Positions 57,013-57,145 of a DNA stretch of 64,000 bases are shown piece after piece. The notes under the pieces are model-generated. The model was not told the DNA's origin. It ran no database searches and saw only the letters and a list, made by a program, of their open reading frames with translations. Position 1 is the first letter of the stretch; each line of letters begins with the position of its first letter. Source of the stretch: Escherichia coli (GTDB lineage: Bacteria; Pseudomonadota; Gammaproteobacteria; Enterobacterales; Enterobacteriaceae); the NCBI RefSeq assembly GCF_013315695.1, contig NZ_CP054353.1; one strand, written 5' to 3'. Both the position numbers and the translations under genes were made by a program.

Positions 57013-57049
57013 AACGAATATCCCCTGATTAATTCCGCGCGCAGTATAA

Positions 57050-57065
57050 ACGAAAACGTTTGCGT
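57050..57065 (+). promoter_or_regulatory. PurR operator (PUR box) of purT
   Basis: ACGAAAACGTTTGCGT, near-consensus ACGCAAACGTTTTCGT, 38 bp upstream of the purT ATG. Confidence 0.75.
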
Positions 57066-57110
57066 GTGTCTTTATTGCTGATGTTGATTTCCCAACTGAA
57101 AAGAAATATA

Positions 57111-57126
57111 CTGTATAAAATCACAG
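57111..57126 (+). promoter_or_regulatory. LexA (SOS) box of yebG
   Basis: CTGTATAAAATCACAG matches CTGT-N8-ACAG; 20 bp upstream of the yebG ATG. Confidence 0.8.
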
Positions 57127-57145
57127 TTATTATGAGAGGCTGCAA

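Follow-up and report, generated by a model that had tools for sequence, protein, structure and literature searches.

A PurR operator and a LexA box, each at its own promoter, in the 133-bp divergent spacer between purT and yebG of Escherichia coli

The stretch of Escherichia coli DNA analyzed here, referred to as the window (64,000 nucleotides), contains two divergently transcribed genes whose control regions are the subject of this report. According to the open reading frame list, purT occupies 55834..57012 on the minus strand, starts with an ATG at 57012 and encodes a formate-dependent GAR transformylase of 392 aa, and yebG occupies 57146..57436 on the plus strand, starts with an ATG at 57146 and encodes the DNA-damage-inducible protein YebG of 96 aa. 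Both assignments rest on NCBIfam equivalog models, with scores well over cutoff, and on Pfam. PurT matches PRK09288 with 654.7 bits (cutoff 339) and TIGR01142 purT with 649 bits, and YebG matches PRK10061 with 206.1 bits (cutoff 161) as well as Pfam PF07130 YebG. The two genes are separated by an intergenic spacer of 133 bp (57013-57145). Over 801 bp around the site, the window matches many complete E. coli genomes with purT/yebG annotation at 100% identity, and most of this segment is present in 5,424 of 5,426 complete E. coli genomes.

The spacer harbors two operator motifs, and their positions in the original prediction, together with the spacer length of 133 bp, proved exact in the sequence. 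On the purT side, the imperfect palindrome ACGAAAACGTTTGCGT at 57050..57065 (no strand assigned) constitutes the PurR operator, or PUR box. On the yebG side, the 16-bp core CTGTATAAAATCACAG at 57111-57126 lies inside the 20-mer TACTGTATAAAATCACAGTT at 57109..57128 (likewise unstranded), the LexA operator, or SOS box. Both had been described as packed within about 60 bp, which fits the distance between their centers (61 bp), whereas the boxes jointly span 77 bp and their edges are 45 bp apart. The accompanying expectation of low novelty, given that both regulons are known, was borne out by the identity of the two sequences with the published purT (PMC3159470) and yebG (PMC3009722) sites; both operators and their sharing of the purT-yebG spacer are already known in full. 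An Rfam scan of 56900-57300 gave no match at E values up to 1, hence no riboswitch or sRNA in the spacer, and, apart from the PUR palindrome, an inverted-repeat scan of the spacer returned only a GC-rich overlap at the purT discriminator.

A consensus scan of 56900-57300 detected exactly two sigma-70-like promoters. The purT promoter, AAGACA-18-TATACT, runs along the minus strand from 57072 to 57043, with its -35 hexamer AAGACA at 57067..57072 and its -10 hexamer TATACT at 57043..57048. The yebG promoter, TTGATT-17-TATACT, runs along the plus strand from 57084 to 57112, with TTGATT at 57084..57089 and TATACT at 57107..57112. Shimada et al. (2014) give identical hexamers for an RpoD-holoenzyme SELEX peak in the yebG/purT spacer. 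Only 11 bp separate the -35 hexamers of the two promoters, which are thus arranged back to back. In the purT promoter, the 18 bp between AAGACA and TATACT are filled by the PUR box. In the yebG promoter, the last four bases of the -10 hexamer TATACT are the first four of the LexA 20-mer, which covers the predicted start and ends 17 bp before the yebG ATG; the LexA box of Salmonella yebG is likewise 17 bp from its ATG (PMC8072944).

Judged from the hexamers, transcription of purT would start near 57036 on the minus strand, after the G+C-rich discriminator GCGCGCG, and that of yebG near 57119-57120 on the plus strand, within the LexA box. Probable Shine-Dalgarno elements, read from the sequence with their function presumed, are AGGGGA for purT (57021..57026, minus strand, 8 nt before the ATG) and GAGAGG for yebG (57134..57139, plus strand, 6 nt before the ATG). 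The purT discriminator (GCGCGCG / GCGCGCGG, 57035-57042, minus strand) lies directly downstream of the -10 hexamer and is largely conserved in Enterobacteriaceae and Erwiniaceae, with the plus-strand consensus CGCGCGCAG followed by AGTATA. A G+C-rich discriminator is a typical trait of promoters under negative ppGpp/DksA control.

For yebG, a second promoter position has to be considered. Belliveau et al. (2018) place the RNAP site of yebG 9 bp downstream of an older computational annotation, and a TAAAAT hexamer at 57116-57121, wholly within the LexA box, lies exactly 9 bp downstream of TATACT. A promoter displaced by this distance, with TAAAAT as its -10, is nevertheless unlikely. The stretches 16-18 bp upstream of it (CAACTG, AACTGA and CCAACT) offer no acceptable -35, and the candidate is absent from the consensus scan. 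The same stretch reads CATAAA in Citrobacter, whereas TATACT and the TTGA 23 bp upstream of it are conserved, and Shimada et al. (2014) list TTGATT-17-TATACT instead. Moreover, TTGATT is itself preceded, at a distance of exactly 9 bp, by a TTGCTG (57075-57080), and the older prediction may have used this upstream hexamer. The yebG -10 could still differ from 57107-57112, and the LexA box is overlapped by either candidate.

The PUR box had been predicted to be near-consensus, and this is correct. It conforms to the ACGCAAACGTTTGCGT / ACGNAAACGTTTGCNT type of PurR (LacI/GalR-family) operators, with a central CG and one mismatch to the palindrome. The PUR consensus palindrome at up to one mismatch has a single match in the 64 kb, and none of 100 shuffles contained any. 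Against a position weight matrix (PWM) built from 27 ChIP-chip motifs from Cho et al. 2011, with purT left out, the box scores 23.7 of a possible 24.8, compared with a maximum of 21.5 among the 27 training sites; the purT score was reached by none of 40 random 64-kb sequences. The remaining PurR-like matches in the window were rejected, the best of them scoring 13.9 (18945-18960, inside tar) against a mean of 14.7 for the random maxima.

This 16-mer has a substantial experimental record in K-12. ACGAAAACGTTTGCGT is the purT motif under a PurR ChIP-chip peak, listed at 1,928,852-1,928,867 in older K-12 coordinates (Cho et al. 2011, PMC3159470 Table 1); in NC_000913.3 the same sequence lies at 1,930,828-1,930,843, 38-53 bp upstream of the purT ATG, an offset equal to that in the window. 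PurR log2 enrichment at purT in K-12 was 2.00 with adenine and 1.02 without, and the same study counts purT as a direct target of PurR repression (Cho et al. 2011, PMC3159470). Sort-Seq of purT (Belliveau et al. 2018) resolved a -35, a -10 and a repressor site between them, the latter only with adenine; this site was lost in a purR deletion strain, and DNA-affinity capture with the purT site pulled down PurR when hypoxanthine was present. By analogy with these studies of the identical K-12 sequence, PurR would be expected to occupy the site in vivo in the present strain and to repress purT in a corepressor-dependent manner, that is, in dependence on adenine and purR.

Among complete E. coli genomes, 3,752 match the 40-mer surrounding the PUR box exactly, and about 1,673 (~31%) have a one-base difference. 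The last base of the box, 57065, is T in the window and in K-12, and C in UTI89 and all variant genomes sampled. The change from T to C shifts the PurR PWM score from 23.5 to 21.0, and its predicted effect on binding is small.

The SOS box had been termed canonical. This is true of the CTGT...ACAG core, which is perfect, but not of the 20-mer, which carries five mismatches to the ideal palindrome TACTG(TA)5CAGTA; the perfect 20-bp LexA palindrome, sought at up to 3 mismatches, had no match in the window. The bare CTGT-N8-ACAG pattern matched twice in the window against 0.58 expected, with two or more matches in 15 of 100 shuffles, and was rejected as stand-alone evidence because it is too unspecific. 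The 20-mer SOS pattern matched once against 0.02 expected. Because of the five palindrome mismatches, a PWM from published sites was used, comprising 17 LexA boxes from PMC3009722 with yebG left out. On this matrix the yebG box scores 20.5, inside the range of the training sites (13.0-28.4, median 22.3); maxima of random 64-kb sequences had a mean of 11.0 and a highest value of 15.2, and none of the 40 sequences reached 20.5. With a motif in the range of known sites and a position overlapping the yebG -10 and the predicted start, the element has the features of a LexA operator. In the PWM scan set beforehand, neither motif scored below threshold, and the documented sites were found at the same offsets rather than at other coordinates.

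In the published record of yebG, the box is listed verbatim, identical to that of the window, in PMC3009722 (Table 4), and its heterology index is 6.3, compared with 1.8-2.8 for tisB, umuD and sbmC (PMC11228462). The SOS box of yebG is a mid-strength site and not a near-consensus one. Induction of yebG by AZT was 4.4-fold and its lexA dependence 9.7-fold (PMC11228462). The literature also describes yebG as UV-induced and yebF as being under LexA control, and Belliveau et al. (2018) report LexA and RNAP sites for yebG by Sort-Seq, together with induction by mitomycin C. Since these data were obtained with an identical box, LexA-dependent induction of yebG by DNA damage would be anticipated in the present strain. 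Sampling of five complete E. coli genomes showed no change in the LexA 20-mer, and the variable bases fell in the yebG promoter spacer.

Two side observations concern other SOS boxes. A divergent Escherichia representative (locus L002) carries a stronger version of the yebG box, ...AAAAATACAG..., comparable to the SNP described for the yebG box of Salmonella (PMC8072944). Within the window, a second SOS box, CGCTGGATATCTATCCAGCA at 41849-41868, corresponds to the known LexA operator of ruvAB, upstream of ruvA; it is the only other strong LexA match in the window, and its PWM score of 21.05 is inflated by the presence of the site within the training set.

That both motifs are functionless chance matches is so improbable as to be negligible. 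The low specificity of the bare CTGT-N8-ACAG core (2 matches versus 0.58 expected) speaks for chance, but the full-length motifs score above all random controls, the sequences are those of experimentally bound, functional K-12 sites, and across two bacterial families the boxes hardly vary, in contrast to the diverging spacer around them.

Our comparative analysis documents this last point in detail. An alignment of the spacer from 30 species of Enterobacteriaceae and Erwiniaceae contains 28 invariant columns, 27 of which fall inside two blocks formed by a -10 hexamer plus its operator, which together make up 45 of the 133 bp (hypergeometric P = 3e-15). The remaining invariant column, 57023, lies in the probable purT Shine-Dalgarno element. 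Among these 30 species, 13 of the 16 columns of the PUR box and 6 of the 8 columns of the CTGT/ACAG core are invariant. Both -10 hexamers reach a conservation of 0.97, with 4 of 6 columns invariant for that of purT. The purT -35 is less constrained (mean conservation 0.71), being kept as TGTCTT in Enterobacteriaceae and not in Erwiniaceae; the TTGA of the yebG -35 is conserved in most species, and a GAGG or GGGG block is retained at the yebG Shine-Dalgarno position. Conservation drops to its lowest value in the spacer, 0.41, between the two -35 hexamers.

A scan with the YebG protein, taking one genome per species, extended the comparison to 80 loci from Escherichia to Yersinia. The compact layout, with purT divergent from yebG across a spacer of 128-141 bp containing both boxes, occurs in 58 of the 80 species, and in these 58 loci the PurR PWM score is at least 18.6 and the LexA PWM score at least 16.9. 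The distance between operator centers is 59-63 bp in 54 of the compact loci and 69-73 bp in the other four. Each operator also persists beyond the compact arrangement. A PUR box scoring at least 18.6 adjoins purT in all 79 loci in which purT was found, including 20 in which yebG is not adjacent, and 79 of 80 species have a LexA box scoring at least 16.9 at 14-38 bp from the yebG ATG. The single departure is Yersinia nurmii (L054), where the search upstream of yebG yielded no good LexA box and scores of 9.4 at most.

Two departures from the compact layout separate the operators. In 20 Yersiniaceae-type loci from Yersinia, Serratia, Edaphovirga and Chimaeribacter (L053, L055-L056, L058-L061, L065-L068, L071-L075, L077-L079 and L081), the RNA helicase gene dbpA (NCBIfam, 747 bits) separates purT from yebG and is encoded on the same strand as yebG. 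In these loci the PUR box remains in the divergent purT/dbpA spacer, 57-88 bp from the purT ATG with scores of 20.0-23.5, and the LexA box follows dbpA, immediately before yebG and 16-38 bp from its ATG. The operators are thus more than 1.6 kb apart, and both are retained. In Klebsiella spallanzanii (L048:2240-2500), the boxes are 188 bp apart and both are intact; the spacer measures 261 bp because of an insert of ~127 bp between the two promoters. This insert has inverted ends, ATACCCTTCATACTTCAAGC ... GCAACTCGAATTATTTAGGGTAT, and we take it to resemble an ERIC/IRU-type miniature repeat.

The evidence is best explained by two back-to-back sigma-70 promoters, each with a single repressor site of its own, in an uncoupled arrangement of simple repression, and we consider this reading almost certain. 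It draws on what was observed directly in this work, namely the identity of the sites with those of K-12, the strength of the motifs, their position relative to the hexamers and their pattern of conservation, and also on the published experiments with the K-12 sequence. The mechanism proposed here applies established knowledge of the PurR and LexA families to the anatomy of the purT-yebG spacer. A PurR dimer carrying hypoxanthine or guanine would bind the PUR box between the -35 and -10 hexamers of purT and, at high purine levels, would exclude RNA polymerase from the promoter, presumably by steric occlusion. On the other side, a LexA dimer would bind the SOS box over the -10 end and predicted start of yebG, probably controlling the downstream yebF as well, until DNA damage leads to RecA-stimulated self-cleavage of LexA, which would free the yebG promoter.

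The original prediction stated that purine and DNA-damage control meet in this region. They do so physically, within one spacer, but evidence of integrated control was not found. The two controls apparently lie side by side because purT and yebG are neighbors, not because they are coupled, and the conserved operator spacing of ~60 bp is accounted for by abutting promoters, each of which holds its operator in a fixed position. Plasmid reporters that read one direction each, together with the comparative genomics, support independence. Belliveau et al. (2018) describe "directional regulatory features", with simple PurR repression for purT and LexA plus RNAP for yebG. Taken together with the parting of the operators along with their own genes in other lineages, this directional Sort-Seq evidence supports two independent modules of simple repression.

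A reading in which the two sides cross-talk deserves consideration on geometric grounds. PurR at the PUR box might modulate yebG, LexA or the two polymerases might interfere with one another, or supercoiling from divergent transcription might couple the promoters, and both genes would then respond to purine status and to the SOS state. The center of the PUR box lies at about -62 of the predicted yebG start, within reach of the alpha-CTD and in the range of an UP element, and PurR bends DNA. The -35 hexamers being 11 bp apart and the predicted starts ~84 bp apart, the upstream footprints of the two polymerases would overlap, and the operator spacing of 59-63 bp in 54 of 58 compact loci could be viewed in the same light. 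Even so, cross-talk appears improbable. For yebG only LexA and RNAP, and for purT simple PurR repression, were seen by Belliveau et al. (2018), and a literature search for yebG together with PurR gave no report of cross-regulation. Nor is the spacing strict, since four species have 69-73 bp, K. spallanzanii has 188 bp and the Yersiniaceae, with dbpA in between, exceed 1.6 kb, the operators being kept in each case. The least conserved columns (0.41) are those between the two -35 hexamers, and the anchoring of each operator to its own promoter is the simpler account of the tight spacing.

A narrower proposition is that the back-to-back packing is itself functional, so that occupancy at one promoter changes the other and the 59-63 bp spacing is under selection. 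We judge this to be slightly less probable still than cross-talk in general; if it were true, purine sufficiency would tune yebG, or SOS induction would tune purT. Helical phasing of PurR and LexA as the main cause of the ~60-bp spacing was rejected, as the variants with 69-73 bp, 188 bp and more than 1.6 kb keep both operators.

The purT-yebG spacer serves mainly as an annotation anchor, fixing the identity and orientation of two genes and two textbook operators at base resolution in this strain. In addition, operators that travel with their own genes support the view that divergent promoters packed into ~130 bp can yet be independently regulated.

Several observations elsewhere in the window concern the strain rather than the spacer. 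An IS4 element of 1,426 bp (11820-13245) interrupts motA at about codon 93, and the strain is therefore predicted to be non-motile. Its transposase (11833-13179, minus strand) has Nterm_IS4 and DDE_Tnp_1 domains, its terminal inverted repeats are ~18 bp long, and a direct target-site duplication of 12 bp, CGGCAGATGGGG, lies on either side of it at 11808-11819 and 13246-13257. The motA-IS4 junction was covered by none of the 5,426 complete E. coli genomes. A remnant of the chemoreceptor gene tap at ~19089-19378 has an internal deletion of 1.36 kb relative to K-12, with the junction near 19252-19266, so that tar is followed almost directly by cheR. Because 1,058 of 5,426 complete E. coli genomes share this junction, the type strain ATCC 11775 among them, it is a lineage trait and not an assembly error. 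Relative to K-12 MG1655, the IS1 upstream of flhDC is absent (~10178-10185), the yecT/yecV region (~770 bp) is replaced by ~40 bp (~26180-26220), and ~125 bp between aspS and nudB are missing (39275/39276). The segment 39500-64000 is 100% identical to E. coli OZ547117 and MSB1_4I.

The closest known system is the purT-yebG spacer of E. coli K-12 MG1655 itself (NC_000913.3; LexA box at 1,930,765-1,930,784), which is the same locus with the same 133 bp. Over the 64 kb, the window and MG1655 share ~97-98% identity. In the spacer, both operators and all four promoter hexamers are identical and the offsets to the ATGs are equal; the only differences, of one base each at 57092 and 57097, fall between the yebG -35 and -10 hexamers and leave every hexamer and box untouched.

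On the purine side, the operators of the pur regulon (purF, purHD, purL, purMN, purC and purEK, among others) are, like that of purT, 16-bp sites of the ACGNAAACGTTTGCNT type with a central CG. The purT box is among the best motif matches, above all 27 other ChIP-chip sites. Its placement is also typical, since PurR sites most often lie between or over the -35 and -10, as they do for 14 of 32 promoter regions (Cho et al. 2011, PMC3159470). By contrast, the operators of purB and purR lie in the transcribed or coding region and block elongation (Cho et al. 2011), unlike that of purT.

On the SOS side, the yebG box resembles the classical LexA boxes of recA, sulA, umuDC and ruvAB, which are TACTG-N10-CAGTA 20-mers over core promoter elements of damage-inducible, lexA-dependent genes. 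It differs from them in being a single, middling site with an A/T-poor "TC" at box positions 13-14, the better version ...AAAAATACAG... being found in some Escherichia lineages and in many other genera. A divergent pair with a related layout is uvrA-ssb of E. coli, where a short spacer contains a single LexA box that serves both genes. The purT-yebG pair differs from uvrA-ssb in that each gene has its own repressor and belongs to a different regulon, and nothing indicates that either operator is shared.
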